Source: a virus
Reading direction: 5' to 3' (one strand)
Length of the DNA: 64,000 bases
Virus record (IMG/VR): IMGVR_UViG_3300009790_000004
Coordinates: 45,783 to 109,782 of that record
Part shown: positions 14,511 to 29,762 of the stretch, piece by piece
How positions within the stretch are numbered: the stretch's first letter is position 1
How the letters are laid out: the number at the start of each line of letters is the position of its first letter
Program-made: the position numbers and the translations under genes
The notes under the pieces: generated by a model
Database searches by the model: none
What the model was told of the DNA's origin: nothing
The model's input: only the letters and a program-made list of their open reading frames with translations

Positions 14511-14518
14511 ATTTCGTT

Positions 14519-15118
14519 ATGTCAATTTATTCTTTGAGTCCTTCTCCTAATTTTCATGGAGAGACAACATATCAGACATGGGAAGATGGATTCACCTCAG
14601 ATGAATGTGATCGTATCATTAAATATGGTGAATCTCTTAATCCAAGACCTGCTACTGTTGGTAATGATAGTGATACCAATGTAGTTGATAATATTCGTAC
14701 ATCTAAAACTTCTTGGATAGACTGTAATAATGACACAAAATGGTTGTATGAGCGTCTAGGTAATATACTAAGAGTAGTTAATGGTATGTTCTGGAAGTTT
14801 GATATCCGTGGATTTCATGAACATATACAATATACTGTGTATGAAGGAGATTCTAAAGGATTTTATAGGTGGCATGTAGATAATAATATGCAGTCTGATG
14901 TACCACCAAGAAAGTTGAGTATGACTGTACAATTATCTGATCCTAGTGACTATACTGGTGGAGAATTGCAATTACATAGTGGTGAAGTACAAACAGCAGT
15001 AAATAATAGAGGACATATTATATTATTTCCTAGCTATGTTCTACATAGGGTACAACCTGTCACTTCTGGTATACGCAGAAGTTTGGTAGTCTGGGCAAAT
15101 GGTCCTGGATTCAAGTGA
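14519..15118 (+). CDS. 2OG-Fe(II) hydroxylase (PKHD/prolyl-4-hydroxylase-like)
   Basis: WHVD, RKLSMTVQLSDPSDYTGGEL and FPSYVLHRVQPVTSGIRRSLV motifs. Confidence 0.9.
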   Translation: MSIYSLSPSPNFHGETTYQTWEDGFTSDECDRIIKYGESLNPRPATVGNDSDTNVVDNIRTSKTSWIDCNNDTKWLYERLGNILRVVNGMFWKFDIRGFHEHIQYTVYEGDSKGFYRWHVDNNMQSDVPPRKLSMTVQLSDPSDYTGGELQLHSGEVQTAVNNRGHIILFPSYVLHRVQPVTSGIRRSLVVWANGPGFK

Positions 15119-15120
15119 CA

Positions 15121-15175
15121 GACAGTGAAATAAGTGTCCATTCCACCCCATTCTGAGGTCAAGATCGTGTATAAT
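15121..15175 (+). promoter_or_regulatory. Early promoter with 18-bp dyad
   Basis: GACAGT-N6-AGTGTC (15121-15138), then TATAAT at 15170-15175; ATG follows at 15182. Confidence 0.75.
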
Positions 15176-15181
15176 AGAAGT

Positions 15182-16345
15182 ATGAAGAACACACATCTTG
15201 AGCATCTTGAAGACGACATCCTCAACAGTGGTGCTGTTGGTGGATTTAATGTAGTTTCGGTACTTCGCTCATTTGGTAACATGTTGACAGGCACTCAGTC
15301 TGAACTAAGTGTTACAACTAAATGGGATGGAGCACCTGCTATAGTATGTGGTACTGATCCTGTAACTGGTAGGTTCTTTGTTGGTACTAAATCTGTATTC
15401 AATAAGGTCACACCTAAAGTATGTTATGATGATGTTGATGTTGATCGTTTCTATCAAGCAGAGATACTTCGTAGGAAATTAAAGGATTGTCTTAAATATC
15501 TCTCACAATTAAACATTAAAGGTATTATTCAGGGAGACTTACTTTTCTCTTCAGGTGATAAGAAATATGCTAAGATTGGTGGACATAGAGTTATTACTTT
15601 CAATCCTAATACTATTACATATGCTGTTTCATGTAAATCTGCTCAAGGAATTGCAGTAGAAAAAGCACAAATTGGTATTGTATTTCATACAGTATATGAG
15701 GGAAATACTATACAATCTTGTAAGGCAGTATATAAAGCACCTCTATTTGTAGGAACTGAAGATATATTCATTCCTAACGCTAATTATAATGATGCTAAGG
15801 GTATTAGTCGCTTCAATAATACTGAGAGAATGAAGTATGTTGCTACTATTAATCGTGCTGAAGGATCACTTAAGAGAGCATCAAAGTTTCTTGATATTAT
15901 GCACCGTCAAGGACAATCTAGGTTCTTAATGCCATTATTATTCAAGCAATTCTTTAACACAACAATTCGTAATGGTAAGAGTATTCTTAACACTAGGAGA
16001 ACAGTTGCACAATTTGCTAAATTCTATTCTGATAAGTTAGATGCAGAAATTAATAAGAAAACAAGTGTTAAAGGTAAAGAAAGATATGAACAAATGAAAG
16101 CAGAAGGACTCAACTTTATTATTAAGTATGAGAATGAGATATACTTTACTTTCGCATCATATATTTCTATTCGTGATGCTAAGAGAATGGTAATTAAACA
16201 GTTAAATAAGGTTGGTCAAATCAGAACATATATAGGTTGCACACCAACAACTCCTGAAGGATATGTTGTTTCAACTAACAACTATGCAATGAAGTTTGTT
16301 GATGATGAATTTAGAAAAGCGAACATTCTCTTTGGCATACAATGA
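15182..16345 (+). CDS. Conserved T4-like phage protein with ligase-type nucleotidyltransferase motifs (DUF6267-like)
   Basis: MKNTHLEHLED start; TTKWDGAP (KxDG), IQGDLLF, EGYVV and MKFV resemble motifs I, III, IV and V of ATP-dependent ligases. Confidence 0.7.
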   Translation: MKNTHLEHLEDDILNSGAVGGFNVVSVLRSFGNMLTGTQSELSVTTKWDGAPAIVCGTDPVTGRFFVGTKSVFNKVTPKVCYDDVDVDRFYQAEILRRKLKDCLKYLSQLNIKGIIQGDLLFSSGDKKYAKIGGHRVITFNPNTITYAVSCKSAQGIAVEKAQIGIVFHTVYEGNTIQSCKAVYKAPLFVGTEDIFIPNANYNDAKGISRFNNTERMKYVATINRAEGSLKRASKFLDIMHRQGQSRFLMPLLFKQFFNTTIRNGKSILNTRRTVAQFAKFYSDKLDAEINKKTSVKGKERYEQMKAEGLNFIIKYENEIYFTFASYISIRDAKRMVIKQLNKVGQIRTYIGCTPTTPEGYVVSTNNYAMKFVDDEFRKANILFGIQ

Positions 16346-17649
16346 AAAAGATTGCTGTAATTGGTGCTGGTGTTATTGGTATTAATTCTGTCTTACAATT
16401 GATAGAAGAAAGAACTAAATCAGATGCAGAGAATGAATGTAAAATAGTATGGATATATGATACTTCAATAGATATATTTGGTATCGGAGAATCAACAACT
16501 CCATCATTATCAGGACAAATTGCAAGTCCACCTTCATACTTAAGATATGATTCTAAAGATTACTTTGATGCTACGATTAAGTTTGGAAATAGATTTATAG
16601 GATGGGGTAAAAATGGTGGAGATTTTACTAGATATTTTCCAATGTCTCGTGCTGCTATACATTTTGATACGAGATTGTTCAGTAGTTTCTTCATTGAGCA
16701 TTTAAATAGTGAGACTTGTTATAACTTTGAAGCAAGAGATACTAAGATAAAATCAATAATATTTGATGAAGATCCTATTGGTGGACATTGTTTTGGTGTT
16801 CATATTGATGGAGAATCTTATGATTTTGTATTAGATTGTAGTGGTGGTAAATCATTAGTTAATGATGATTATTATTTTGATTCACCATTTGATACATGTA
16901 ATACTGTCCTTGCTACTAGACTACCAGAACCAGCAGATTGGGGTTATACATTAACACAAACCACTCGAAATGGTTGGATGTTTGGTATTCCATTACAGTC
17001 AAGAAGAACCTACGGTTATGCTTACAATTCAAGTGTTACTTCAGAAGAAGAAGCACAACAAGAGTTTAGAAGTTTAGTTCCACAAGAAGGATATCAGTAT
17101 AAGAAATTAACATGGAAACCACGATTCTCTAACTATGTTTTACACCATAGTGGTAGATATGCTCGTAATGGTAATGCACTAGGATTTCTTGATCCATTAG
17201 AAGCATTAGCGGGAATGTATTATGATAAGGTAACAGATAAGACTGCAAAATATGCTCTTGGCGATACATACAATAGTATAGATCTCATCAATAGTATTAA
17301 CAATTGGTATTATCAGGAGATTGTTGGTGATTGGTTATTAAATTCTGCATGGATGTATCATTTTGGATCTGAACATGACACACCATTTTGGCAACAAGTC
17401 TCAAAAAATGCTAAAGATATATTAAACAATAAGGAGATAAATCCTTGTCGATTAATAAGTGATGAACAGACATTTACAGATGATTTGTTTAATATTATTG
17501 GTGACAATCCTGAAATGAAAAAGTTATTTGTACATGATCTTCTTGATGTTGAGTTTACTTTCGATTTCTGTCGAGATTATTATAATTTTATATCATTTAC
17601 TACTGGTATGGGTGCTGAGTATGCTAACAAATTTCCAACATTTACCTAA
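16342..17649 (+). CDS. Flavin-dependent (tryptophan) halogenase family protein
   Basis: GAGVIG FAD motif, GIGESTTP, DATIKFG (catalytic Lys position), GWMFGIPL (WxWxIP variant), GNALGFLDPLEA. Confidence 0.85.
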   Translation: MKKIAVIGAGVIGINSVLQLIEERTKSDAENECKIVWIYDTSIDIFGIGESTTPSLSGQIASPPSYLRYDSKDYFDATIKFGNRFIGWGKNGGDFTRYFPMSRAAIHFDTRLFSSFFIEHLNSETCYNFEARDTKIKSIIFDEDPIGGHCFGVHIDGESYDFVLDCSGGKSLVNDDYYFDSPFDTCNTVLATRLPEPADWGYTLTQTTRNGWMFGIPLQSRRTYGYAYNSSVTSEEEAQQEFRSLVPQEGYQYKKLTWKPRFSNYVLHHSGRYARNGNALGFLDPLEALAGMYYDKVTDKTAKYALGDTYNSIDLINSINNWYYQEIVGDWLLNSAWMYHFGSEHDTPFWQQVSKNAKDILNNKEINPCRLISDEQTFTDDLFNIIGDNPEMKKLFVHDLLDVEFTFDFCRDYYNFISFTTGMGAEYANKFPTFT

Positions 17650-17672
17650 ATATTCTTACTTAAATTATAACT

Positions 17673-19058
17673 ATGACTAGAAAGATTGCTATTATTGGTG
17701 GTGGTGCTGATGCAATATCAGCAGTAATAAATTGTGTATCTAATAGAGATACAATTGATAGTGTATATCAAGATGATGAAATAGTTTGGATCAGAGATTG
17801 TAGTCATGTTATTGATAACAATTGCATACAAGTTGAGTCTGAATGGACAGAAATAGTAGGAGAAAATACAACATTAAATACTATTCATTTCTCACAATTA
17901 CTAGATGGTAAACAGAAATGGGGTAAGAAGTTTATTGGATTTGGTAATAATACTCCTCACAATTTCATGGTAATGTATGAACCAACACATGTAGGTTGGC
18001 ATTTAGATGAGAAGAAACTTGTTGAATTGTTCTGGAATAATTATACTAACACTGCAAGAAATGTTAGACTAATTGATGCTAATGTACCTAATATTGATGT
18101 CACTGATGATTATGTTAAAGTCCTTGATGAACAATATGATTTTGTAATTGACTGCACTAGAGGTTCAATTTGGGATCATAATTCTTATAGTCAAGCATTA
18201 TATAATCCAACAAATGCAACACTAAGTATTACTGTAGAGAAAGAAGCAGAGTTTAATTATACTGCTCATATTGCTGCAAAGAATGGTTATATAACTGGTA
18301 TTCCTACTAAAGATAGACAAACATGGATATATTCATACGATAAAGATATAACAACTAAGGAAGATGCTACACATGATTTTAATCAATATTGTGAGGTTAG
18401 TAACTATGGGTTGCTAAAATTCAATGAATATGATAAACTGTTATCAGATTATTGTATTCACTCTAACAACAGATATGCTAGATGTGGTCGTGCTTTAGGA
18501 TTTAATGATGAATTAAACAACTTTAAGAATTATCTTGAAGGTGATATTGCGGAAGCAATAGCAATATATTTATTTGAAGATCCAGAGAGACAACAAACAG
18601 AATATCAGAGATTAGATGTTGAAGAAAGATATGATGATGGCAAAACAGATTATGCTTCATCACTTGGATTTTATCTACAGTTCGGTTCACAACACAAGAC
18701 AAAATTCTGGGAACAAACTAGAATAAATGCTTGTCATACTTTGGAGAACAGAAAATACTTTGATATATCTGAGAATCTTATACAACATGATTATCTTAAA
18801 ATGAATGAACTTATTCCATTACATGAGAATATTCGTTTAGATTATTTTAGGAGATTAGCAGAAGATGAACAGCGTATGAGGCAAAAGATGACTGCAAACT
18901 CTGATGAACCTTACAGATTGTTAGGTAGTTATCAGATATTTACAGAGACTATTAATGGATTAGGTGCTCCATATGCACATAAATTTCCATTAATGACTGA
19001 ACTTATCCCACCAAAAGAACCATTTGGAGAGATTAATTTAGACCCTATTATATTATGA
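17673..19058 (+). CDS. Divergent halogenase-family paralogue
   Basis: Colinear with the upstream gene but with degenerate motifs: GGGADA, DGKQKWG, GYITGIPT, GRALGFNDEL. Confidence 0.75.
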   Translation: MTRKIAIIGGGADAISAVINCVSNRDTIDSVYQDDEIVWIRDCSHVIDNNCIQVESEWTEIVGENTTLNTIHFSQLLDGKQKWGKKFIGFGNNTPHNFMVMYEPTHVGWHLDEKKLVELFWNNYTNTARNVRLIDANVPNIDVTDDYVKVLDEQYDFVIDCTRGSIWDHNSYSQALYNPTNATLSITVEKEAEFNYTAHIAAKNGYITGIPTKDRQTWIYSYDKDITTKEDATHDFNQYCEVSNYGLLKFNEYDKLLSDYCIHSNNRYARCGRALGFNDELNNFKNYLEGDIAEAIAIYLFEDPERQQTEYQRLDVEERYDDGKTDYASSLGFYLQFGSQHKTKFWEQTRINACHTLENRKYFDISENLIQHDYLKMNELIPLHENIRLDYFRRLAEDEQRMRQKMTANSDEPYRLLGSYQIFTETINGLGAPYAHKFPLMTELIPPKEPFGEINLDPIIL

Positions 19059-19393
19059 CTCCCGATAGACATGATTTTCCTATTATAGGAGATTTCTATA
19101 CTAAAGCAGAAGTGGATCAAATGATTGCTGATGCACTGGCAGAAGCAAGAGCAATAGATGAAGAATCTATGCGTAAACATAACAGAACTGCAACTATTAT
19201 TAGTATGATATTAGGGTTTATATGTTTAGCATTATTTGTAGATGGATTGTTAAGAATATTAGGTATTATTCCACCATTTATGGATTTAGATGTTAATGTT
19301 ATTGATGATATTATAGATAAGGTGGAGAGTGATATTATGCCACTCGTTCAAGATACAGCAACAAAAGCACAACGGTACATTCCAGGAAGATGA
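19055..19393 (+). CDS. Small cyanobacterial-like membrane protein
   Basis: Helical N-part followed by a TM segment (IISMILGFICLALFVDGLLRILGIIPPF); ATGA coupling. Confidence 0.75.
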   Translation: MTPDRHDFPIIGDFYTKAEVDQMIADALAEARAIDEESMRKHNRTATIISMILGFICLALFVDGLLRILGIIPPFMDLDVNVIDDIIDKVESDIMPLVQDTATKAQRYIPGR

Positions 19394-19674
19394 CTTTTCT
19401 AATCGCTATTATGTCATTCGCAAACTTTGTATTCTATCCTTTAGTGGTAGGTTCAATTATTGCTGTTATTATCGAACAGATATTGAGAGCAAGAGGTGAT
19501 GATGATAACCCACAAGATGTGAGAAATGTAGTCATATCAATGGGTATCAGGAAATATCTTATTAGACAAGCATGGTTATTTAATATAATATGGTTTGTTG
19601 GTTATTTTATTCTTATGTTTACAATAGGTAGACAAGGACAACAACCAATGCCTGATCTTATTTGGCAAGGATAA
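19390..19674 (+). CDS. Two-TM membrane protein
   Basis: Two hydrophobic helices; ATGA overlap with the previous gene. Confidence 0.75.
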   Translation: MTFLIAIMSFANFVFYPLVVGSIIAVIIEQILRARGDDDNPQDVRNVVISMGIRKYLIRQAWLFNIIWFVGYFILMFTIGRQGQQPMPDLIWQG

Positions 19675-19826
19675 TGATTTTAGTTATTATAATAGTATCA
19701 TTATTACTCTTATTAGTTGTTGGTGGACTTTACCTTACATTTGGTAGTGGTAGTAAACAATTAAGAGATCCTATTGATGAACATGCTAAAATGCACGAGT
19801 TAGGTATAGCACATAAACATGATTAA
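19674..19826 (+). CDS. psbN: PsbN-like photosystem assembly factor (50 aa)
   Basis: Hand translation: MILVIIIVSLLLLLVVGGLYLTFGSGSKQLRDPIDEHAKMHELGIAHKHD. A TM helix followed by Y..FG..SK.LRDP..EH is the PsbN signature. Not in the ORF track. Confidence 0.8.
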   Translation: MILVIIIVSLLLLLVVGGLYLTFGSGSKQLRDPIDEHAKMHELGIAHKHD

Positions 19827-19947
19827 CTTATCTCCTGATTCATTAAGAATACTCGCTATAATGATATTAGGGTTAATATGGTTTTATTTGGTTATAGAAC
19901 AAATTGCAGTTAATTCAACTCAGAAAGATGACAATGAACCCAGATAA
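19819..19947 (+). CDS. Small single-TM protein (42 aa)
   Basis: MINLSPDSLRILAIMILGLIWFYLVIEQ...; overlaps both neighbours. Confidence 0.6.
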   Translation: MINLSPDSLRILAIMILGLIWFYLVIEQIAVNSTQKDDNEPR

Positions 19948-20149
19948 TATTCCATTAAGGAATACATCACAAGAATTTGAATATGAGAAAATATCAAGAG
20001 AAATAGATCGTTGTAATGATGTGAAAGAATTGCAGACAATGTGTAAGTTTTTAGTTAAATTAGAGATGAAAACTAGAGAGAATTATAGTATTATGATTGC
20101 TGATACTCTTGACGCAATGAATTTAGATCTACCACAGGACACTTTATAA
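19934..20149 (+). CDS. nblA: NblA-like phycobilisome degradation adaptor
   Basis: 71 aa, two-helix pattern: L...SQEFEYEKISREIDRCNDVKELQTMCKFLVKLEMKTREN, resembling the NblA L.LEQQF ... L...M...N pattern. Confidence 0.6.
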   Translation: MNPDNIPLRNTSQEFEYEKISREIDRCNDVKELQTMCKFLVKLEMKTRENYSIMIADTLDAMNLDLPQDTL

Positions 20150-20213
20150 ACTGTCTGTTTTATGTAAAGAGTTGTTACAATACCATTTCTTGTCAACCAT
20201 TGTCCTTTATAAT
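20138..20213 (+). promoter_or_regulatory. Dyad plus -10 element
   Basis: GACACT-TTATAA-ACTGTC (20138-20155); TATAAT at 20208-20213, further away than in the other copies. Confidence 0.55.
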
Positions 20214-20242
20214 ATGGGAGTACAAGCGAATTTTAACTACCT

Positions 20243-20689
20243 ATGCCAACTGCATCTACAGCGAAAACAACAACAACTCGCAAAAGACGCACACGCAAAA
20301 CTACCACTCCAAAATCAACTGCTAAGGTTATTAAGGAGATTCAAGCAGTTTTAGATGCACCAACACCTAAATCTCTTGATAAGGTACAACCAACAGTTAA
20401 AAAGACACCTGTAAAGAGAACTCCTAAAGCAAAAGTTTCCACTCCTAAATATCAGCAACCTGTTGAGATTAAGAAAGTGACTGAAACTAAAGCAACTAAA
20501 GTTCGTCCTGCTAAACCAAATCTAACCATTGCAGATTACACTGCTGATATTAAAGTTAGATGGGAAATTCATCAGTGGGAAACACAAGAACTTTGGAATG
20601 ATGTAGTTAAAGGTTATAACAATGCTAAACCATTTGTTATTAAATCTGTTGATTATGTCAAGGAGTCCTACAACAGAGCATTTAACTAG
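20243..20689 (+). CDS. Basic Lys/Thr/Pro-rich early protein
   Basis: Histone-H1-like low-complexity N-half (TTRKRRTRKTTTPK) and a helical C-terminal domain. Confidence 0.75.
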   Translation: MPTASTAKTTTTRKRRTRKTTTPKSTAKVIKEIQAVLDAPTPKSLDKVQPTVKKTPVKRTPKAKVSTPKYQQPVEIKKVTETKATKVRPAKPNLTIADYTADIKVRWEIHQWETQELWNDVVKGYNNAKPFVIKSVDYVKESYNRAFN

Positions 20690-20745
20690 ACCAGTTAACA
20701 AAGTGTCACCCAACCCCTTCACAGGGGTTTTTTTATTGCTATAAT
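20690..20745 (+). promoter_or_regulatory. Early promoter with dyad and stem-loop
   Basis: ACCAGT-N6-AGTGTC (20690-20707), hairpin, extended -10 TGCTATAAT ending at 20745. Confidence 0.8.
20712..20734 (+). terminator. Rho-independent terminator embedded in the promoter
   Basis: AACCCCT-tcac-AGGGGTT followed by a T run. Confidence 0.7.
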
Positions 20746-20751
20746 AAGAAT

Positions 20752-20964
20752 GTTGAGGGATATGTGGTTCCTATGCCCGAAAACTCACCTGACGGTAACT
20801 GATTCGCTCATCCGCAGTAATTGAGTTAGTAGGGGTTCAGGTGTAAGCGATTCCCATAGGGTAAATTTGGGCATAGTAGGTGAAACCTCTGTTGATGCCC
20901 CACTCCCTCAACTGCTGCATGTCCCTTTGGTGGTTTCAGACATGGAGGCGATAGGAAACCACCA
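20752..20964 (+). ncRNA. Candidate highly structured non-coding RNA (~210 nt)
   Basis: GC-richer island with no credible ORF, starting 7 nt after TATAAT; several long complementary helices and pseudoknots (detailed in findings). Confidence 0.75.
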
Positions 20965-20985
20965 CAATATTGTACACAATTCCAC

Positions 20986-21690
20986 ATGAATTCCACACTC
21001 GCTGGCAAAAAAGCAAAAGCAGATGGACACAAATATGAGGTGGATTGTGTTGCAATGTTAAATAAACTCTTCGGTGGCGATCATGCTACTGATGGGAGAC
21101 CACAGACTAAAGTAGATGTATATGATAAGGAAGGAGTTAACACTTATTCAGTCAAAAATGTATCAAAAAACCACACTCAAGTGGCATTATTGTCCAGTCA
21201 AAAGTTTATAGATCATTTCAATCTTACTGATTCTGGATGTGAACGATTCATCAATATGTTCTTTGGATATTATAACAAAGAACTACAATCTATTGTTGAA
21301 AGTAAGCATCCAGAATTGTCTCTAAGTGATGCTGAGATAAGACAAAATAGGGTCTATAAGAATAACATATCAGATAGTATTATAGATGAGTTCTTAACAT
21401 TTATGAACTCAAATAAGATAGAGATATTTGATATTATTGTGAGGCGAGGGTTCAATGGTGATGCAGTTAATCATATAATATGGAGGAATAAAATAACAAC
21501 TTCTGTTAATATTATAGATGTTGAATCCCTTGCTTCATTGGTAGAAAATGGTATTTGGAAAATAAATAATACTACATTAGAGTTTAGAACTGCTGATAAC
21601 ATTAAACTATTTCATTTACAAATGAAAGGAAGTGGCAAGAAATATAATAGTGGTTATCATGGTATGATGTTTCACATGTATTGGAGTTAA
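20986..21690 (+). CDS. PD-(D/E)XK endonuclease, type II restriction enzyme-like (MspI/HinP1I-like)
   Basis: GKKAKADGHKYE, TKVDV, YSVKN, HTQV and LFHLQMKGSG parallel the G..E / KTD / SxK / QV / LQxKG motif series. No methyltransferase in the window. Confidence 0.65.
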   Translation: MNSTLAGKKAKADGHKYEVDCVAMLNKLFGGDHATDGRPQTKVDVYDKEGVNTYSVKNVSKNHTQVALLSSQKFIDHFNLTDSGCERFINMFFGYYNKELQSIVESKHPELSLSDAEIRQNRVYKNNISDSIIDEFLTFMNSNKIEIFDIIVRRGFNGDAVNHIIWRNKITTSVNIIDVESLASLVENGIWKINNTTLEFRTADNIKLFHLQMKGSGKKYNSGYHGMMFHMYWS

Positions 21691-21693
21691 TTA

Positions 21694-21852
21694 ATGCTAA
21701 CAACTACTAATACTGATTATCACTCTGAGTATTGGATTATGAATCAACATATACATCCAAATGCTAGACTAGATAATAAAGAAGACATTAAATCTATAGA
21801 TAATAATATTAGTAACCCAAACCGTAATTTATTAATTAAGTATGTCAATTAA
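21694..21852 (+). CDS. Hypothetical protein (52 aa)
   Basis: Hand-translated ORF filling the gap after the nuclease. Confidence 0.5.
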   Translation: MLTTTNTDYHSEYWIMNQHIHPNARLDNKEDIKSIDNNISNPNRNLLIKYVN

Positions 21853-22012
21853 GGGTACACACGACATTTATCACGAAGAAATAGAGATATGGAAGAGTAG
21901 ATTTTACTCTCTATATCATTGGGTAGAGCAACAAGAATTTAGCGAAGAGTTCCCATTATCTGAGGTAGTGGACACTCAAGAAACTGTCTATACATCATCA
22001 AAATACAAATAA
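21842..22012 (+). CDS. Hypothetical protein (56 aa)
   Basis: Hand-translated ORF overlapping the previous stop. Confidence 0.5.
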   Translation: MSIKGTHDIYHEEIEIWKSRFYSLYHWVEQQEFSEEFPLSEVVDTQETVYTSSKYK

Positions 22013-22026
22013 CATAATGCTATACT
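21971..22026 (+). promoter_or_regulatory. Early promoter with dyad
   Basis: GACACT-N6-ACTGTC (21971-21988); extended -10 TGCTATACT ending at 22026. Confidence 0.75.
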
Positions 22027-22049
22027 GACTATATGGTCAGGAAAACAAT

Positions 22050-23321
22050 TTGATTAAACTTCGGTCTCATCAGTCTCGTGCTTTAGACAAACTAAAGTCA
22101 AGAGATAAGGGTTGTGTCTATGTTCCTACTGGTGGTGGCAAGACTATCATCATGTTAGAGGATTTAGTACAACGATTACAGAGTGCTCATTCACCACAAA
22201 CAGTGGTAATCGTAGCACCTAGAATATTACTTGCTGGTCAATTATGTTCTGAATTCTTAGAATATATTGATGGCAATTCTGATTTCGATTATGATAACAA
22301 CTATAACATATTACATGTTCATAGTGGTGAAACTGTTTACGATTCATCTACTAAATCAGATTATATAAGAGAATGGGTGATAGATAGAAACTTTCTAATT
22401 CAACATTCAATTATATTTTCCACTTATCATTCTTTGGGTAGAATTGTTGACTCTGAAATAGATGTTGATGTATTATATTGTGATGAAGCACATAACGCAA
22501 CACAAAAACATCATTTTGTGGGAGTTGCTGCTACATCAACAAATGCAACTAACAGTTATTTCTTTACAGCAACACCCAAATATACTAGAGGTGGATGTAA
22601 TCGTGGCATGAACAATGTTGATGTGTTTGGTAATACTTTAATTAGTGTACCTGCACCTGAACTTGTTAACAATGGGAGTATAATACCACCCAAATTAGTA
22701 GTACATGAAACTGAACATGTACGCACTAAGTATAACGCACATGATGTAGATCGTGAGATGGTATTAGAAATCATTGATGATTTACAAGAAGAAGAATCAG
22801 CAAAAGTGTTAGTTGCTGCCCCTAATACTAAAGTATTATGGAATATGCTATCACAAACTGATATTTTGCATATTTTAAAATGTAAGGGGTATGATATACT
22901 TCATATCACATCTAAGCATGGTGCATATATTAATAGAAAGAAAGTTGGTAGGGATAAATTCTTTCAAACTCTAACAGATTGGGGTAAGGATGATGATAAA
23001 AAGTTTATCGTATTTCATTACTCAATATTATCTGAAGGGATCAATGTTCCAGGATTAACTCATACTATTCTATTAAGAAATCTACCTGTTATTGAAATGG
23101 CACAGACAATAGGTAGAGTTATTCGCCTACATAAAGATGACGCAAAAGATATTGCCAACGGTAATATTGCTGCTGGTAATTATCAATTATATCGTAAATC
23201 TCATGGAGTCGTAACTGTGCCATTATGCGGTAAAGCATCTCTGGCAACTAGGAATAGACTACAAAAGATAATTGAATTAATCTTTGAAGATGGTCTCCCT
23301 GCTCACTCATTCGCATATTAA
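22050..23321 (+). CDS. Superfamily 2 helicase (DEAH box, ResIII-like)
   Basis: PTGGGKT, DEAH, TATP, EGINVP and QTIGRVIR motifs; TTG start. Confidence 0.9.
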   Translation: MIKLRSHQSRALDKLKSRDKGCVYVPTGGGKTIIMLEDLVQRLQSAHSPQTVVIVAPRILLAGQLCSEFLEYIDGNSDFDYDNNYNILHVHSGETVYDSSTKSDYIREWVIDRNFLIQHSIIFSTYHSLGRIVDSEIDVDVLYCDEAHNATQKHHFVGVAATSTNATNSYFFTATPKYTRGGCNRGMNNVDVFGNTLISVPAPELVNNGSIIPPKLVVHETEHVRTKYNAHDVDREMVLEIIDDLQEEESAKVLVAAPNTKVLWNMLSQTDILHILKCKGYDILHITSKHGAYINRKKVGRDKFFQTLTDWGKDDDKKFIVFHYSILSEGINVPGLTHTILLRNLPVIEMAQTIGRVIRLHKDDAKDIANGNIAAGNYQLYRKSHGVVTVPLCGKASLATRNRLQKIIELIFEDGLPAHSFAY

Positions 23322-23323
23322 CA

Positions 23324-23485
23324 ATGGCAAAGTATTTACACACAATTTATTATAAGAATAACGGTGGTTCTACATTAGAATCTACTATTATTGCTGAAAC
23401 ACCAGATGATGCTAAATCATCATTTATTGCAAGCAATCCAAATGCTTCAATAGACAAAATCCTAACAACTGTACCTGCTAAGTAA
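23324..23485 (+). CDS. Hypothetical protein (53 aa)
   Basis: Hand-translated; similar pattern to the next ORF. Confidence 0.6.
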   Translation: MAKYLHTIYYKNNGGSTLESTIIAETPDDAKSSFIASNPNASIDKILTTVPAK

Positions 23486-23489
23486 CATC

Positions 23490-23645
23490 ATGTTTTTTGA
23501 AATTCGCAAACAAGAAGTAGTATTTTATCACCCTAATCATGGATTACAAAGTGTTATTGTAAACTCTAATAATCCTGATGGTGCTAAACAATTAATACTA
23601 GAACAGTATGGCAATGTTGACATCAAGAGGGTGAATTCCCTCTAG
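23490..23645 (+). CDS. Hypothetical protein (51 aa)
   Basis: Hand-translated; SVIVNSNNPDGAKQLI resembles STIIAETPDDAKSSF of the previous ORF. Confidence 0.6.
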   Translation: MFFEIRKQEVVFYHPNHGLQSVIVNSNNPDGAKQLILEQYGNVDIKRVNSL

Positions 23646-23654
23646 GAGGATAAC

Positions 23655-23852
23655 ATGAATGTACCAAATTGGCAACACCACAGTAAAAAAGAACAGAAAA
23701 GGACTTTAAGACCACAGGCACTAAGAAGTGCCAAGGCAAGAGTCAAACAGTTTAAGAAGTGTCACATGACCCCTTACAAAAACACTTGTAAGGGGTTATA
23801 CTATGTAAGTACACAACAAAAGGTGATTAATGCCAAACACTCCACCCATTGA
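23655..23852 (+). CDS. Small basic cyanophage protein
   Basis: AGGAGG RBS; MNVPNWQHHSKKEQKRTLRPQALR. Confidence 0.7.
   Translation: MNVPNWQHHSKKEQKRTLRPQALRSAKARVKQFKKCHMTPYKNTCKGLYYVSTQQKVINAKHSTH
23746..23802 (+). promoter_or_regulatory. Early promoter with dyad and stem-loop
   Basis: AACAGT-N6-AGTGTC (23746-23763); 12-bp hairpin 23768-23797; TATACT at 23797-23802. Confidence 0.75.
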
Positions 23853-24204
23853 GTTAGATCAACGAGGTGTTAGAACTGCCCCAACTGATGTCAAAGCACA
23901 ACAAGCGGATGTTCTTAATTATACCAAGTTTCTAACACAAATACTTGAGCAACATTACATTCAACAGTATCCAAATTCAGGCAACAAGTTAACATTTACT
24001 ATTGAAACTGGTAGAAGATATTTAAAGATAATTCAAGACAATTCAGTACACGCATTTGTTGATAAAACTACAGGTGATGTATACAAACCAGCAGGTTGGA
24101 AATCACCAGCAAAGATAGTAAGATATAATTTATTAGATGAACAATCACGCATTAAGTGTTATCAATGTGCTGATTGGGCAGGTGGTTATCTATATTTAAG
24201 ATAG
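23830..24204 (+). CDS. Conserved phage hypothetical protein
   Basis: AAGGTG RBS; GRRYLKI..SVHAFVDKTTGDVYKPAGWKSPAK motif. Confidence 0.8.
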   Translation: MPNTPPIELDQRGVRTAPTDVKAQQADVLNYTKFLTQILEQHYIQQYPNSGNKLTFTIETGRRYLKIIQDNSVHAFVDKTTGDVYKPAGWKSPAKIVRYNLLDEQSRIKCYQCADWAGGYLYLR

Positions 24205-24216
24205 GGGGATTATAAT

Positions 24217-24402
24217 ATGTCAGCATTTAATCAACTTGATTTGTTATCAGATTGTTTAGAAGATTTCTGCACTAAGTACAACTTAGAGTTTATGAGTGCA
24301 GATGATATTTTATACGGTGATTCTGATGGTAAATTAACAAGTTACCAGAGAGATTGGTTGAGAAACTATATCTCAGTCTGGGACACTATTGTAAACCTAT
24401 GA
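24217..24402 (+). CDS. Hypothetical early protein
   Basis: GGGGA RBS; tightly packed ORF. Confidence 0.7.
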   Translation: MSAFNQLDLLSDCLEDFCTKYNLEFMSADDILYGDSDGKLTSYQRDWLRNYISVWDTIVNL

Positions 24403-24412
24403 GGATTTAATC

Positions 24413-24640
24413 ATGTATCAAAGTGAATTTTTTGGAAGACATTTCTGGGTTGATGATGATTTAGAGTTGAAATCTGCACCGTCATATATTGATGGTACTG
24501 CTGATTTTGAACTCGAAGATTATGTTTCAAACTGGGAAGATTGGGAGGGAGTTAATGTTAGTTTACTCTTAGACATTTACAAGTGTGAAATATTAAATAA
24601 GAAAGATTATTCAGGTTCATTATCACACAAAGGAGCGTAA
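24413..24640 (+). CDS. Hypothetical acidic early protein
   Basis: GAGGA RBS; tightly packed ORF. Confidence 0.7.
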   Translation: MYQSEFFGRHFWVDDDLELKSAPSYIDGTADFELEDYVSNWEDWEGVNVSLLLDIYKCEILNKKDYSGSLSHKGA

Positions 24641-24646
24641 CTAACA

Positions 24647-24865
24647 ATGAACGGACTCAAATCAACACCAGCACAGTTACAAAGAAGGAAGGAAGTTGTT
24701 AGAGATTTGTATGAAATAGTGAAGGAAGAATTTGAGGAGTATAAACTTAGAGATGAGAATGATTCACTCTTAGGTTATATTTTAGATGAATACATTTACA
24801 AATGTACTGAACTCGAAATTAATGAACTTGAGGACATTATTGTTAATCATTATGGGATAGATTAA
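24647..24865 (+). CDS. Hypothetical acidic early protein
   Basis: AGGAG RBS; tightly packed ORF. Confidence 0.7.
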   Translation: MNGLKSTPAQLQRRKEVVRDLYEIVKEEFEEYKLRDENDSLLGYILDEYIYKCTELEINELEDIIVNHYGID

Positions 24866-25053
24866 TGGCACTAAAAGTATGTAAAGACCTTAGAAAATTG
24901 ATGAAAAAGTATAATTACAAACTCGAAAGAGTCGGTAAACATTATACTTGGCATGGTCAAAATGGTGCTATAATAGTAACATCTAAGACTCCAGGAAAAG
25001 CACGATATTTAAAAGAAATAGAGTGCAACATTCGCAAACAAATCAATGACTAA
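24865..25053 (+). CDS. HicA-like small basic protein
   Basis: 62 aa with an alpha-beta-beta-beta-alpha pattern: KDLRKLMKKYNYKLERVGKHYTW....IIVTSKTP, with His at the HicA catalytic position. Confidence 0.55.
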   Translation: MALKVCKDLRKLMKKYNYKLERVGKHYTWHGQNGAIIVTSKTPGKARYLKEIECNIRKQIND

Positions 25054-25207
25054 TGTGAACAAATACACTCGTGCTGGTGTTAATGGGAAGCAAATAGTTT
25101 GCCCACTATGTAACAACGAAGCACGAGTATTTCACTTCTCTTGGAGTGCATTAACCTGCCAAACTTGCAGGTCTTCAGTAAACAAAACATCATGGAGATT
25201 AGCATGA
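25046..25207 (+). CDS. Zn-ribbon protein (53 aa)
   Basis: Hand translation contains CPLC ... CQTC; not in the ORF track. Confidence 0.7.
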   Translation: MTNVNKYTRAGVNGKQIVCPLCNNEARVFHFSWSALTCQTCRSSVNKTSWRLA

Positions 25208-25443
25208 CTATCTATCAACAATCAGCAAATCCTAATGCCACTAATAGTGAATTAGATGCGAAAGTTATCATAGAACATGATAACGAAGTAGGACACATGA
25301 CCTACCTTGATTTACTAACAGAATTACAATCTTTAGATGAAGATGTACTGTTAGAACCAGTTACAGTTTATGATAGTCTAGATCAGGTATTTCTGCCAGT
25401 TGGTAGAATAATTAGTAACAAATCTACATATTTGGAGGTATAG
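25204..25443 (+). CDS. Hypothetical early protein
   Basis: ATGA coupling at 25204 with GGAG upstream; more plausible than the TTG at 25141. Confidence 0.65.
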   Translation: MTIYQQSANPNATNSELDAKVIIEHDNEVGHMTYLDLLTELQSLDEDVLLEPVTVYDSLDQVFLPVGRIISNKSTYLEV

Positions 25444-25444
25444 T

Positions 25445-25504
25445 GACAGTTACACAAGTTGCACACAATAGGATGACAAATAGCATGTTTTCAATTATTA
25501 TAAT
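25445..25504 (+). promoter_or_regulatory. Early promoter with dyad
   Basis: GACAGT-N6-AGTTGC (25445-25462); TATAAT at 25499-25504. Confidence 0.65.
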
Positions 25505-25519
25505 AGAGGTTAAATAGTT

Positions 25520-25705
25520 ATGTCGTTTCTTTCATCTCAAACTCAAATGTCTAATGACACTTTAAGATCACAATTTGTCGAAATAAATCATCATCAAGCA
25601 GACTTATTGCTTTGGTGTTATGAACAAATGGCAATAGACTTGAGTGATAACGAAATGGCAGAATTGCAACCATTAATTACACAATTGGAGGAAATTGCCA
25701 ACTAA
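25520..25705 (+). CDS. Hypothetical early protein
   Basis: GAGGT RBS immediately downstream of the promoter. Confidence 0.65.
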   Translation: MSFLSSQTQMSNDTLRSQFVEINHHQADLLLWCYEQMAIDLSDNEMAELQPLITQLEEIAN

Positions 25706-25781
25706 TGACATCATTTATTGTATGGGTATGTATCAGCATACTTTTATACATTGCAATCAAAAACTTTGGAGGTTATGGTAG

Positions 25782-26057
25782 ATGACTCAACTCAATTCTT
25801 CTCAGAAAGATGAACTAATTGAACAATATGTTGACCTCTTAGTTGATAGTATGAGCATGAAAGATTTAATCTCTTATGTATCAGAAGATCTAACTAATTT
25901 CTGTGAGAAACTAACAGATAGTGAATTAAAAGATGAAATTAGTTTAACACTAGATGATGAAATATATGATGAGTTAGTTGATAATGTAACCTCAGAGATT
26001 ACCGTTGTTAATTATAATTCAGTACATGACCAAATTCACAAGGAGGCAGTCACTTGA
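25782..26057 (+). CDS. Hypothetical acidic early protein
   Basis: GGAGG RBS; helical acidic ORF. Confidence 0.7.
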   Translation: MTQLNSSQKDELIEQYVDLLVDSMSMKDLISYVSEDLTNFCEKLTDSELKDEISLTLDDEIYDELVDNVTSEITVVNYNSVHDQIHKEAVT

Positions 26058-26105
26058 CAAACTGGCACAAGATCGCTTGATTTTTGCCCTATTCTGTGTC
26101 ATACT
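26049..26105 (+). promoter_or_regulatory. Early promoter with dyad
   Basis: GTCACT-N6-ACTGGC (26049-26066); TTGATT-17 nt-CATACT. Confidence 0.7.
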
Positions 26106-26111
26106 ATAGGT

Positions 26112-26426
26112 ATGAATAATTCAATTACTAAATCTCTTTTTTCACAGTCCATCAACCTATGTGACGATTACCTAGGTTTTGAGTGGTCTTTAGGTGTCCG
26201 CACCTCTATGTTTGACTCTTACCGTAGATCAAACGATCTAGATCCAAATCTAGCAATCTATCACTACGGTGGCGATACTTTCAAAGTTCGTACTATGATT
26301 TATGACGATTCAAAAGGTTGTATCGTTGGAGATCAGGTTGATCTCGGTTCTTTTGATAACATTTATGATGCACAAGATTGTGCTGAAGATTATCTAAAAG
26401 ATCTACTATTAGACCTCGGAGTTTAA
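26112..26426 (+). CDS. Hypothetical early protein (probably leaderless mRNA)
   Basis: ATG lies 7 nt after the -10 hexamer. Confidence 0.7.
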   Translation: MNNSITKSLFSQSINLCDDYLGFEWSLGVRTSMFDSYRRSNDLDPNLAIYHYGGDTFKVRTMIYDDSKGCIVGDQVDLGSFDNIYDAQDCAEDYLKDLLLDLGV

Positions 26427-26428
26427 CA

Positions 26429-26557
26429 ATGAGCACTCTACATCATGAATCAATTCTTGAAACTTTGTTTGAAGAAGTACTCGAAGAGTTTCCAACATTT
26501 AGTGAGGAACAATGCGAGACTATTGCTAAACGAAGATTTGAAGATATGTGTCAATAA
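26429..26557 (+). CDS. Small acidic cyanophage protein (42 aa)
   Basis: GGAG RBS; MSTLHHESILETLFEEVLEEFP...RFEDMCQ. Confidence 0.7.
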   Translation: MSTLHHESILETLFEEVLEEFPTFSEEQCETIAKRRFEDMCQ

Positions 26558-26572
26558 TTGATACAAACTCTT

Positions 26573-26602
26573 AGTCCTTAAGTATGACTCTAAACTGCTT
26601 AA
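26573..26602 (+). promoter_or_regulatory. Candidate intergenic H-type RNA pseudoknot
   Basis: S1 AGTC/GACT; S2 TTAAGTA/TGCTTAA (7 bp, one G-U). Confidence 0.45.
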
Positions 26603-26626
26603 AATGCCAAATCCTAATTAACACAA

Positions 26627-26743
26627 ATGACTCTACAATCTGTTCCTTTCGCTAACATTGACATTGAATCATTCTTTTATGATTGTAAAACAGGCAACGA
26701 AGTCTTAGCAGTATTGCAAGAACTCGTTGAGAGTGCAGAGTAA
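26627..26743 (+). CDS. Hypothetical protein (38 aa)
   Basis: Hand-translated ORF between the pseudoknot and the next promoter. Confidence 0.5.
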   Translation: MTLQSVPFANIDIESFFYDCKTGNEVLAVLQELVESAE

Positions 26744-26744
26744 G

Positions 26745-26803
26745 ACCAGTCAACAAAGTGTCACATCAAACCCCCATTAGGGGGTTTTTTCATGTATTAT
26801 AAT
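26745..26803 (+). promoter_or_regulatory. Early promoter with dyad and terminator-like stem-loop
   Basis: ACCAGT-N6-AGTGTC (26745-26762); AAACCCCC-atta-GGGGGTTTTTT (26768-26790); TATAAT at 26798-26803. Confidence 0.8.
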
Positions 26804-26825
26804 AGAGTAGTCAACCAAACAACCT

Positions 26826-27173
26826 ATGAGAAAACTTGAAAAGCAAATGAATTTCGCTCTTTCCAACAAGTCAAACTGGGCAGGATCTAACACTTCAGTT
26901 AGTTACAACGAAAACACAAATTGCTCTTCTGTTTATCTACATGGTCATCAAATTGCTACTCTAGATCATAACACAAATGCTGTCAAATTGTCATCATGTG
27001 GTTATGAAACAGTAACGACAAAATCACGACTAAATGCTATTTTAGACGAGGTTAAGTACGGTTGCAGAGTATTTCAAAAGAAATTTGAGTGGTTCGTTAG
27101 TTATAACGGACAAACTGAAGATTTCGTTGATGGTATGATCTTAGTAGATGCAGATTCTCTACAAATTGCATAA
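26826..27173 (+). CDS. Conserved phage hypothetical protein
   Basis: VYLHGHQIA ... GYETVTTKSRLNAIL motif; first gene after the promoter. Confidence 0.8.
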   Translation: MRKLEKQMNFALSNKSNWAGSNTSVSYNENTNCSSVYLHGHQIATLDHNTNAVKLSSCGYETVTTKSRLNAILDEVKYGCRVFQKKFEWFVSYNGQTEDFVDGMILVDADSLQIA

Positions 27174-27386
27174 AACTACAATACGATTACACCTCAAAAG
27201 TGTAATCGTTTTTATTATGATTTCACTCTCTATGTTATTTTCTTTCTTTTCCAATCATGCAGACAAATTCTCAACAAGTGCCACCCCCAAACAAACACAA
27301 AGGGAGACCACTTTCAGAGATAAAATGAATACTTATTCATCTAATCTGTATCAAGAACTATTCACTTATCAGGAGAACTTCCCACT

Positions 27387-27614
27387 ATGAACAAACAATT
27401 AATGGCACAATTAGAAAGAGACATTGCATATTGCATTGATATTCTCGAACTAACTAACAATCAAATTGGTGATTTGCTTCGTGCTTGTGAAGAGTTAGGA
27501 GGCATATCTGTAGAGTATTTCTGTGAAGAATTCATCTTTGAATGTGAAGATAAAGATGAACTTAACAGACTACATGATGATGACTATTTAACAATTAACT
27601 GGGGGTTATCCTAA
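27387..27614 (+). CDS. Hypothetical acidic early protein
   Basis: AGGAG upstream; ISVEYFCEEF motif. Confidence 0.7.
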   Translation: MNKQLMAQLERDIAYCIDILELTNNQIGDLLRACEELGGISVEYFCEEFIFECEDKDELNRLHDDDYLTINWGLS

Positions 27615-27714
27615 TGGTTTATGTGTTATTTTGGTCTTACAATGTGTTCGCTTGGTTAACAATGATCTACCTACAATCAACCAAGACAAAACAACAACCT
27701 ATTATGGAGATTAA

Positions 27715-27870
27715 ATGATGTTCGTTGTATTCAAATCACCAGTATTCTTCACTAAAAGTTATAATGAAGCATGTCAAATTGCCGATGCTCATTATCAACA
27801 AACTGGTGAAATCGTGGCAGTTGAAAATGTAAACCAAGAAGGAGGATTTTATTATGGAAATAACAAGTAA
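27715..27870 (+). CDS. Hypothetical protein (51 aa)
   Basis: GGAG RBS; hand-translated. Confidence 0.55.
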   Translation: MMFVVFKSPVFFTKSYNEACQIADAHYQQTGEIVAVENVNQEGGFYYGNNK

Positions 27871-28093
27871 GGACGGCAATATGGTCGTTGATTTCTATCC
27901 TGTTAAAACATGGGATAACAAATTGATAAGCAATCGTATGCTTAAAGTATTATCATTCAGAGGTGATAAGCAGAAGAAAATGTTAATATCTCGTGATGAG
28001 TTTTATTATCAAGTAAGAGAGTATATTAAGGACTGTGGTTATAAAGTAACCTCAGAGTATATGCCCGCCCAATTTATCACACAGGAGGACTAA
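27854..28093 (+). CDS. Hypothetical early protein
   Basis: GGAGGA RBS. Confidence 0.75.
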   Translation: MEITSKDGNMVVDFYPVKTWDNKLISNRMLKVLSFRGDKQKKMLISRDEFYYQVREYIKDCGYKVTSEYMPAQFITQED

Positions 28094-28095
28094 TC

Positions 28096-28410
28096 ATGCC
28101 AAGAAAGAGTACAAAACTGTCTATTGCTAAGTTGCAAGAAGGCATCACAATGTTCAATGGAGTTAGTGCTATTTTAGAGGTCGTATTTGACAACAATTTC
28201 AATCAATATTCAGTGGTTAATTTCATCACTAAATATGAAGATGAGTTGGGAATATCACTCATAGAAGATAAAGAATATACAGAACAATTTGACGGTTGGT
28301 TGTTACATTGTGAAGCAAGTTCAAGAAAGGAAATTACAAGAATATGTGGTATAATAGAGGAGGATATTGATATTGAGGAGTGTAATGTAGTAAGAGTAAG
28401 TAACAACTAA
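28096..28410 (+). CDS. Hypothetical early protein
   Basis: AGGAGG RBS. Confidence 0.75.
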   Translation: MPRKSTKLSIAKLQEGITMFNGVSAILEVVFDNNFNQYSVVNFITKYEDELGISLIEDKEYTEQFDGWLLHCEASSRKEITRICGIIEEDIDIEECNVVRVSNN

Positions 28411-28447
28411 TCATGAGCGATTTCGCCCCTAAAAATAACACAATCTA

Positions 28448-28860: not shown

Positions 28861-29058
28861 CCTAAGTGCTAATTACACCTCTCTGGATGTCATATAAGGG
28901 GCATACATGAGGGGTTAGTTAGTGTATGCGGAAAGTTATTAAATACCTTTATAAATGTATATCTGTGTTTTATTCTTCGAGTGATAAATGTTATTAACTG
29001 TGTGATTACTATGTGTTAATTAGCGTTATAAATGTGCGGAGTAAGTGTCACCTAAGCG

Positions 29059-29087: not shown

Positions 29088-29139
29088 CATACAGGTCACA
29101 ATATCCTGACAGTTCTTATAAACAATTCAGAGGCAATCA

Positions 29140-29741: not shown

Positions 29742-29762
29742 AACTGAAGTACATTAATCATT

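Follow-up and report, generated by a model that had tools for sequence, protein, structure and literature searches.

An orphan nuclease of HinP1I/MspI fold in marine cyanophages and the accompanying loss of ACGT from their DNA

A type II restriction enzyme without a partner methylase is as a rule lethal to its bearer, and a phage gene that appears to encode one raises the question of which sequence the enzyme recognizes and how the phage survives it. We have studied this question for the gene at positions 20986 to 21690 (plus strand) of a 64,000-nucleotide stretch, referred to below as the window, which is the 3' part (positions 45,783 to 109,782) of a single IMG/VR viral contig of 109,782 bp (IMGVR_UViG_3300009790_000004). 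By its PHROG and Pfam hits the contig comes from a marine T4-like cyanomyovirus, and according to CheckV it represents about 51% of the genome. An original prediction, made from the letters of the window, had described the product as an MspI/HinP1I-like endonuclease lacking a methyltransferase and had proposed that the phage protects itself by avoiding CCGG and GCGC. We found that, across related phages, the orphan nuclease is strictly and repeatedly associated with DNA free of a different word, ACGT. The gene probably encodes an ACGT-cutting, methylase-free restriction enzyme, to which the phage would be immune by total loss of the site, and which would be aimed at host DNA, at rival-phage DNA or at both. 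The two parts of the proposed system are the following.

20986..21690, plus strand: orphan restriction endonuclease gene, product of predicted HinP1I/MspI fold (open reading frame, homologues, AlphaFold2 model, structure matches)
1..64000 and the whole 109.8-kb contig, both strands: the proposed 'immunity' part, no ACGT on either strand (frame-specific synonymous recoding)

Exact counting confirmed that the window contains no CCGG (66.6 occurrences expected from base composition and 19.6 from a second-order Markov model) and no GCGC (66.6 and 22.6), and that GGCC and GATC, which had also been reported by eye, are present (8 and 295 sites). Two other words are missing as well, ACGT (210 and 74 expected) and CGCG (67 and 10). 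All four have a count of zero in the whole contig, in which CpG is depleted overall (observed/expected ratio 0.39). Tetranucleotide counts were also compared with a codon-aware null, in which synonymous codons were shuffled with every protein and the codon usage preserved. The null predicted 184 ± 12 ACGT, 62 ± 7 CCGG, 27 ± 4 CGCG and 41 ± 6 GCGC, none of which was observed, and AGCT (133 observed, 422 expected) and TCGA (109 observed, 244 expected) were also depleted. The depletion of CCGG and GCGC stood up in this comparison, but the equally absent ACGT and CGCG had been overlooked before. Removal of ACGT from the contig is complete and frame-specific: Asn, Asp, Tyr and His codons standing before Val end in T in 437 of 437 cases (elsewhere 23% are C-ending), the Arg codon CGT never follows an A-ending codon (0/312; 23% elsewhere), and the Thr codon ACG never precedes T (0/544; 4.6% elsewhere).

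Related loci were collected with a nuclease profile (78 viral loci) and by way of the neighbouring helicase, searched as a single sequence and then as a profile (more than 110 loci); regions of cultured phages were added. In most carriers the nuclease, or a nuclease-methylase pair, lies in a variable stretch directly upstream of the UvsW-like helicase, which in the focal phage shares about 56% identity with the helicases of cultured Synechococcus and Prochlorococcus myoviruses.

22050..23321, plus strand: UvsW-like DNA helicase gene, used as synteny anchor; no functional part of the nuclease system

The 136 strand-symmetrised tetranucleotides were compared between 44 distinct orphan-nuclease loci, 81 non-carrier loci and 15 methylase-linked loci. 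Non-carriers are loci where the nuclease is absent within about 10 kb of the helicase, which is a local and not a genome-wide definition, and L075-77, in which a PF05869 methylase overlaps the end of the nuclease gene, were classed as methylase-linked. By far the best discriminator of carriers was ACGT. The orphan-nuclease loci have 4 sites where 2661 are expected, and 41 of the 44 have none; the loci without the nuclease have 2282 of 4262 expected, and not one of the 81 is free of the word; the methylase-linked loci are intermediate, with 126 of 753 expected and a zero count in 4 of 14. No association with the gene was seen for CCGG (observed/expected 0.10 in the 44 orphan carriers and 0.05 in the 81 non-carriers), GCGC (0.35 and 0.36) or CGCG (0.30 and 0.27). 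G001 is a carrier of 179.8 kb and 93% completeness. Of the 256 tetranucleotides ACGT alone is missing from it, where base composition predicts 631 sites and the Markov model 267; CCGG occurs 128, CGCG 65 and GCGC 75 times. Further carriers have such sites too (29 GCGC in L013, 28 CCGG in L030). Thus the proposed tie between the gene and CCGG/GCGC depletion was not found, relatives without the gene being equally depleted; site loss does track the gene, but the word is ACGT. Co-occurring non-carrier cyanophages have about 1.5-3 ACGT sites per kb, approximately half of the composition-based expectation.

Other words show losses of their own (loci L103-L191). CCGG is missing altogether in the majority of T4-like cyanophage loci, with or without the nuclease, among them 57 of 74 non-carriers; CGCG and GCGC are absent from many, and zero counts were recorded among the 81 non-carrier loci for AGCT (18 loci) and TCGA (5 loci: L103, L105, L126, L147 and L158). 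Such lineage-specific purges of tetranucleotides may be due to other phage nucleases or to host systems.

The association between gene and word does not follow from common descent of a single clade. On a helicase tree (FastTree; the nuclease tree was a quick IQ-TREE run) the orphan-nuclease label requires at least 5-6 changes, and each carrier, with no or at most a few ACGT sites, stands beside a non-carrier sister that has them. The observed/expected counts are 0/61 in L060 and 34/76 in L151; L047 and L048 have 0-2 sites, and their counterparts L191 and L187 have 34/68 and 11/29; similar contrasts were obtained for L051 with L190 and for the focal clade with L115. Homologous DNA could be compared in two carrier/non-carrier pairs, and at none of the 12 and 16 ACGT sites of the non-carrier does the carrier have this word, the differences being mostly single-base. 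Cultured phages gave the same picture. Sf-CH11, which has no nuclease, has 103 ACGT (Markov expectation 109) and zero CCGG, and Sf-CH1b, which has a restriction-modification (R-M) pair, has 3 ACGT (Markov expectation 66). Both were isolated on Synechococcus WH8102, and this difference in ACGT content between phages of the same host strain argues against avoidance imposed by the host.

Three apparent ACGT-poor non-carriers were rejected. L102 and L114 are carrier fragments, each with its break immediately downstream of the nuclease. L094 and the carrier L095 share 97.6% identity over a 7.3-kb stretch that begins about 145 bp past the nuclease gene; upstream of this stretch, where L095 has the nuclease, L094 has 1.76 kb of unrelated DNA (L094:1-1757), and its only two ACGT sites are in this non-homologous part. 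L094 is either a cassette replacement (recombinant) or an assembly chimera.

The nuclease gene is an intact ATG reading frame of 234 codons. A Pfam search with the protein found no family at E ≤ 1, although Pfam includes models for HinP1I (PF11463) and MspI (PF09208), and NCBIfam and single-sequence PDB searches gave no match. The only PHROG detected was 25220, of 'unknown function'. Marine metagenomes yielded 118 homologues. When a profile of the family was compared with the PDB, R.HinP1I was the sole match (E 0.0018), and in an atlas the nearest named cluster was PF11463 R-HinP1I. The AlphaFold2 model has a predicted local distance difference test score (pLDDT) of 92.4. Aligned with VIA-align, it fits HinP1I over 209 of 234 residues (Z 19.4, root-mean-square deviation 2.6 Å), then MspI (Z 12.7), with the next fold at Z 7.4 and HhaI at Z 6.7. 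Foldseek returned HinP1I (E 4e-10), MspI (1e-4) and R.HhaI (2e-4). These profile and model comparisons bear out the assignment to MspI/HinP1I-like endonucleases at the level of the fold, and they suggest a remote HinP1I/MspI relative that forms a separate, unnamed family.

An alignment of 45 sequences showed E18, T41-K42-x-D44, S55-x-K57, T64-Q65, L68 and R122 to be invariant, together with a C-terminal block H-L-Q-M-K-G-S-G...F-H. E18, D44, S55 and K57, which are kept in all branches of the family, are the putative catalytic residues (E18, D44 and S55-x-K57); D44 was assigned as catalytic Asp by position alone (D-X10-S-x-K). Putative base-recognition residues are T64-Q65, L68 and the loop H210-L-Q-M-K214-G-S-G. 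In the HMMER profile alignment, E18 corresponds to E18 of HinP1I, S55/K57 to Q81/K83, Q65 to Q93 and L68 to K96. The roles of the HinP1I residues were taken, through this alignment, from the paper on R.HhaI: Q93 and K223 read the inner G:C pair, and K96 reads the outer G (PMC7026639). That Q93 is kept as the invariant Q65 and K96 is replaced by the invariant L68 agrees with recognition of CG at the centre and of another outer base pair than in HinP1I.

R.HinP1I (type IIP, G^CGC; PDB 1YNM, 2FKC) is similar in size to the phage protein and resembles it over its full length. In both, the N-terminal helix has the pattern G-x6-G-x3-E, and a catalytic strand with x-K precedes a recognition strand that bears Q; a CG-centred 4-bp palindrome is the likely target of the phage enzyme as well. 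They differ in that identity is only 14-16% and the phage protein is not matched by PF11463, that the motif is D-X10-S-x-K instead of SD-X18-Q-x-K, that K96 corresponds to an invariant Leu with ACGT, not GCGC, as the predicted site, and that the nuclease is phage-borne and has no methyltransferase. HinP1I, MspI and HhaI have been grouped structurally (PMC7026639). With R.MspI (C^CGG; PDB 1SA3) and R.HhaI (GCG^C; PDB 6UKE) the model shares the two-sheet monomeric architecture, but there is no sequence-level match, and the third domain of HhaI is absent from it.

The orphan nuclease genes have a median ratio of nonsynonymous to synonymous substitution rates (dN/dS) of 0.14, indicating purifying selection. 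A profile search of prokaryotic genomes, one per species and 185,579 species in all, gave one match, an archaeal contig from a metagenome-assembled genome (MAG), so that the family appears to be virus-borne and practically absent from cellular genomes. The single match, L113 (NZWD01000043.1, a marine Methanobacteriota MAG contig), has 5 ACGT sites against 61 expected and an excess of TCGA (120/61); possibly the contig is viral or proviral and was assigned to the archaeon in binning.

A homing endonuclease was considered and rejected. No LAGLIDADG, HNH or GIY-YIG domain was found with Pfam, and genome-wide loss of a 4-bp word does not suit a long site. The PD-(D/E)XK homing enzyme I-Ssp6803I aligned with the model at Z 7.4, in the catalytic core only.

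That no methyltransferase lies in the window, as had been noted, could be extended to the whole contig: six-frame searches of the 109.8 kb found no methyltransferase of PF00145, PF01555, PF02086 or PF05869, and a Pfam scan of 20 mid-sized open reading frames of the contig found none either. In the near-complete carrier G001 no PF01555, PF00145 or PF05869 methylase was detected. By these searches the focal nuclease is an orphan in the sequence available. The situation is different in other members of the family.

L063-L074 and L081 (PF01555), L075-77 (PF05869): methylase-linked loci (Pfam)

At the corresponding position upstream of the helicase, the cultured phages S-CAM22 and Sf-CH1b encode a distant homologue with 25% identity in which the motifs are preserved, and its gene shares 4 nucleotides with one annotated as a DNA methyltransferase, which belongs to PF01555 and has an SPPY motif. 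The same methylase (66-88% identity) adjoins the nuclease, likewise with a 4-nucleotide overlap, in 11 metagenomic loci, and in L075-77 a Dam-type methylase of PF05869 occupies the partner position. The R-M pairs of S-CAM22, S-RIM12 and Sf-CH1b belong to the same protein family and locus as the focal nuclease; their methylase is annotated as 'DNA methyltransferase' and the nuclease as 'hypothetical protein' or not at all. ACGT is depleted in the two pairs counted (S-CAM22, 45 sites against a Markov expectation of 75, and Sf-CH1b, given above), whereas in the focal window the methylase is missing and ACGT is entirely gone. Most methylase-linked loci have retained ACGT. Between S-CAM22 (L110:20528-21247) and L068 (L068:10669-11388), the PF01555 methylases are 88% identical and the adjacent nucleases 26%. 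Nearly identical methylases beside such divergent nucleases argue for one specificity across the family, and it seems that evolution or replacement of the restriction gene proceeds much more rapidly than that of its methylase.

The reading that we favour can be described as follows. The enzyme would be a small, probably monomeric type II restriction endonuclease, whose site, judged from genome composition, is most likely the 4-bp palindrome ACGT. It would be produced without a partner methyltransferase, and the phage would owe its immunity to selection that has cleared its genome of ACGT altogether, for the most part through synonymous changes. All DNA with ACGT would then be open to attack, that of co-occurring non-carrier cyanophages and presumably the host chromosome included, and the likely benefit would be destruction of host DNA (shut-off, nucleotide supply), exclusion of co-infecting phages, or both. 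A traceable series from R-M pairs with sites, through R-M pairs with few or no sites (Sf-CH1b, L063), to an orphan nuclease with none suggests the route to this state: a phage-borne R-M pair would have been followed by progressive ACGT loss, until the methylase was useless and was lost. For this scheme we infer the cut position, when the gene is expressed, which DNA is attacked and in what sequence the evolutionary steps took place. Self-protection through avoidance of sites, the general principle put forward in the original prediction, fits the data very well. The suggestion that the gene is an 'early' nuclease degrading host or competitor DNA would agree with a strong match to a sigma-70-type promoter (see below) and with the lack of denA, denB and ndd in cyanomyoviruses, which have been suggested to degrade host DNA in some way not yet described (PMC2984593).

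Several observations weigh against this reading. Causality could be reversed, an already ACGT-free genome tolerating acquisition of the gene. The purge is incomplete in one orphan clade (about 95-98%), where G003 keeps 8 ACGT in 126 kb, and L048, L062 and L066 keep 1-2 sites each; no flanking context common to the residual G003 sites was found, so a longer recognition site is not indicated. In a divergent branch, L078 and L079 (24-25% identity; contigs G006 and G007), the conserved residues are kept and ACGT is present (14/45 and 40/70), and no methylase of the four families was found on these contigs, which are 4% and 28% complete. Among methylase-linked loci, L063 and L075-77 also have zero ACGT, and the presence of a methylase is thus no predictor of site retention. 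In G001 a single methylase of the D12 class (Dam-like) is encoded at a distance of 80 kb from the nuclease, and the focal contig is only about half a genome, so that a distant methylase may exist in the focal phage. The local definition of non-carriers, too, belongs on this side. As regards L079, its nuclease (L079:9839-10579, 246 amino acids, motifs intact) belongs to a seemingly much larger phage (95 kb corresponding to 28% of the genome) and is flanked by a NUMOD3-motif protein and a 5'-3' exonuclease.

Among the other explanations, the one proposed originally, namely an enzyme of MspI specificity (CCGG) or HinP1I specificity (GCGC) in a phage that avoids the corresponding words to escape its own nuclease, has become extremely improbable. 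Both words are missing from the focal contig and the nearest solved structures are of enzymes cutting G^CGC and C^CGG, but carriers often contain these words in near-expected numbers (G001, L013 and L030 above), depletion is equal or stronger in the 81 non-carriers, Sf-CH11 has lost CCGG without having the nuclease, and the residue that reads the outer G in HinP1I, K96, is an invariant Leu (PMC7026639). ACGT avoidance could instead be imposed from outside, by ACGT restriction in the host or by nucleases of other phages, the gene then being incidental or tolerated and its site not necessarily ACGT. Host-driven avoidance of restriction sites is the classical explanation for palindromes missing from phages, the gene-independent loss of CCGG, CGCG and GCGC tells that outside pressures on tetranucleotides exist, and some methylase-linked homologues are ACGT-free as well. 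Against this stand the 41 of 44 ACGT-free orphan carriers compared with none of 81 non-carriers, at least five independent contrasts on the helicase tree, the 103 and 3 sites in two phages of one host strain, and the virtual absence of the family from prokaryotic genomes; moreover, an orphan enzyme with some other site of 4-6 bp would need that site to be gone, and G001 misses no other tetranucleotide. We consider external avoidance unlikely. It is slightly harder still to believe that the protein is catalytically dead, or that it is a sequence-specific DNA-binding or nicking factor serving as regulator or as repair or recombination nuclease. Such a role could be suspected from the serine (S55) in place of the acidic or amide residue of (D/E/Q)-x-K, from the few residual ACGT sites tolerated in one clade, and from the fact that monomers of the HinP1I type cut one strand at a time (PMC7026639). 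E18, D44 and K57 are invariant, however, HinP1I is likewise non-acidic at the position of S55 (Q81 in the profile alignment), mere binding would not force the loss of every site, and homologues form operon-like overlaps with methylases, as true restriction enzymes do. MspI has a non-acidic residue, N, at this position of the motif, where HinP1I has Q.

The alternative that we take most seriously, although it is clearly less probable than the favoured reading, accepts the enzyme and the site and differs in the purpose: the nuclease would be chiefly a weapon against co-infecting phages, or the selfish remainder of a mobile R-M cassette retained in a hypervariable locus, and not a degrader of the host chromosome. 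Non-carrier cyanophages of the same waters, with ACGT at about half of the composition expectation, would be vulnerable; the region around the gene is variable, genes being gained, lost and exchanged in the manner of cassettes; the nuclease genes differ greatly beside nearly identical methylases; and host DNA might be methylated or otherwise protected. The present data do not separate host DNA from rival-phage DNA as the target. For pure selfishness the case is poorer: with purifying selection this strong and about 180 sites per 110 kb to be purged, the gene more likely brings a real benefit.

ACGT-specific enzymes, namely MaeII and HpyCH4IV (A^CGT) and TaiI (ACGT^), are known from bacterial R-M systems that include methylases. 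They share the predicted recognition word with the phage nuclease, the comparison being by site and not by sequence. A cut at A^CGT would be analogous to the cleavage of G^CGC by HinP1I and of C^CGG by MspI, which in both cases yields 5'-CG overhangs. Virus nucleases that destroy host DNA include EndoII and EndoIV (denA and denB) of T4, where phage DNA is protected by hydroxymethyl-C, and the R-M systems of chloroviruses. The logic proposed here is the same, to attack cellular DNA and to spare one's own, but in T4 and the chloroviruses the viral DNA is marked by base modification or methylation, whereas in the focal phage the proposed mark is a missing target word. The likeness to denA and denB is in the proposed role only, since the nuclease has no Pfam or PHROG match to the GIY-YIG enzyme EndoII or to EndoIV and its predicted fold is PD-(D/E)XK. 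By sequence and model, the system can be described as a derivative of an R-M system without M, with a fold and active site like those of HinP1I and MspI but outside their Pfam families.

Avoidance of restriction sites and solitary restriction endonucleases were reportedly treated by Ershova et al. in 2012. In a survey of 831 phages, 12 solitary restriction endonucleases were found, and such an enzyme was considered lethal if its site is available (PMC4176335). Palindrome avoidance is usually ascribed to enzymes of the host, whereas here it tracks a gene of the phage itself. Our literature searches found no report in which a solitary restriction enzyme of a phage was connected with the total disappearance of its recognition sequence, nor a description, for phages, of discrimination between self and non-self without a modification enzyme.

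A whole clade of abundant ocean viruses appears to keep such a lone enzyme under purifying selection, the price being a genome rewritten at every site. We would tentatively, and with rather less confidence than for the enzyme itself, go on to suggest that marine T4-like cyanophages wage a 'methylase-free restriction', in which the enzymes are offensive and immunity is encoded in genome composition. If this were true, the ACGT family would supply the long-missing host-DNA degradation of cyanomyoviruses, an exclusion mechanism between phages, or both, and the purges that vary between lineages (CCGG, CGCG, GCGC, AGCT, TCGA) would record an arms race driven by own and rival phage nucleases and not by host restriction alone. 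The gene would be a concrete candidate for the breakdown of host DNA in cyanomyoviruses that lack denA, denB and ndd (PMC2984593), and it suggests how co-infecting cyanophages may exclude each other. In more general terms, a k-mer missing from a viral genome can point to the specificity of an unannotated nuclease. The prediction here is a new ACGT-specific enzyme of HinP1I fold, possibly of use as a reagent, and the family offers a natural series for studying a change of outer-base specificity (K96 to Leu).

Upstream of the nuclease gene the window contains a promoter-like site and a long leader.

20712..20729, plus strand: terminator-like hairpin and T-run, ending the upstream gene 20243..20689 and overlapping the -35 element
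20718..20745, plus strand: sigma-70-type promoter-like site, TTCACA, 16 nucleotides, TG, TATAAT (11 of 12 consensus positions, extended -10; a consensus match only)
20746..20985, plus strand: long 5' leader of the nuclease gene (47% GC; genome 36%)

The promoter-like site is located about 240 nucleotides upstream of the ATG. Within the leader, at 20826-20925 (plus strand), there is a very strongly conserved element of about 85-100 nucleotides with 51 invariant columns across 11 phages, and its hairpin shows compensatory changes at 4 pairs around a GAAA-type loop. Copies were found at L037:12330-12428, L025:12718-12818, L178:9884-9982, L180:9165-9262, L147:11346-11446 and others, at varying intergenic positions near the helicase, in carriers and non-carriers alike. 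The core of the leader is therefore probably conserved separately and is not nuclease-specific. In a megablast of the region against cultured phages only this short element matched. The leader matched no Rfam family at E ≤ 1, and its folding energy is not unusual (z = -0.29). We regard the element as a candidate cyanophage non-coding RNA or regulatory leader. Contigs from marine RNA libraries of four studies contain mostly the leader, and two short ones reach the coding sequence; one of the RNA-library contigs, X16, covers 20945-21125, from the leader into the coding sequence, and may reflect DNA carry-over. As a sign of transcription of the nuclease these contigs are weak.

The remainder of the contig agrees with its assignment to the T4-like cyanomyoviruses. 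PHROG and Pfam matches include gp6/gp8-type baseplate wedge proteins, gp5, tail fibres, gp32 and gp53, as well as phoH, thyX, purM, purC, heme oxygenase, carbamoyltransferase and halogenase-like genes. No tRNAs were found in the window, nor any Rfam family at gathering thresholds. Giant structural reading frames are found in the window at 4723-9969 (1748 amino acids), 33462-49739 (5425 amino acids), 51352-58686 (2444 amino acids) and 59632-63999 (more than 1456 amino acids, running off the end), all on the plus strand; the one of 5425 amino acids is between the gp6-like and gp8-like baseplate wedge genes, i.e. in the position of gp7. Two tryptophan-halogenase-like genes stand in tandem at 16342-17649 and 17673-19058 (plus strand), and further upstream in the contig a Nol/NodU-type carbamoyltransferase (L001:13209-15020) is accompanied by a PfkB kinase and an NAD-dependent epimerase. 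These genes may form a cluster for modification of a small molecule or glycan. A second nuclease of the PD-(D/E)XK superfamily (Pfam PDDEXK_1, E 1e-5) is encoded outside the window, directly after phoH, at G000:C1:28809-29486 (L002:9809-10483).

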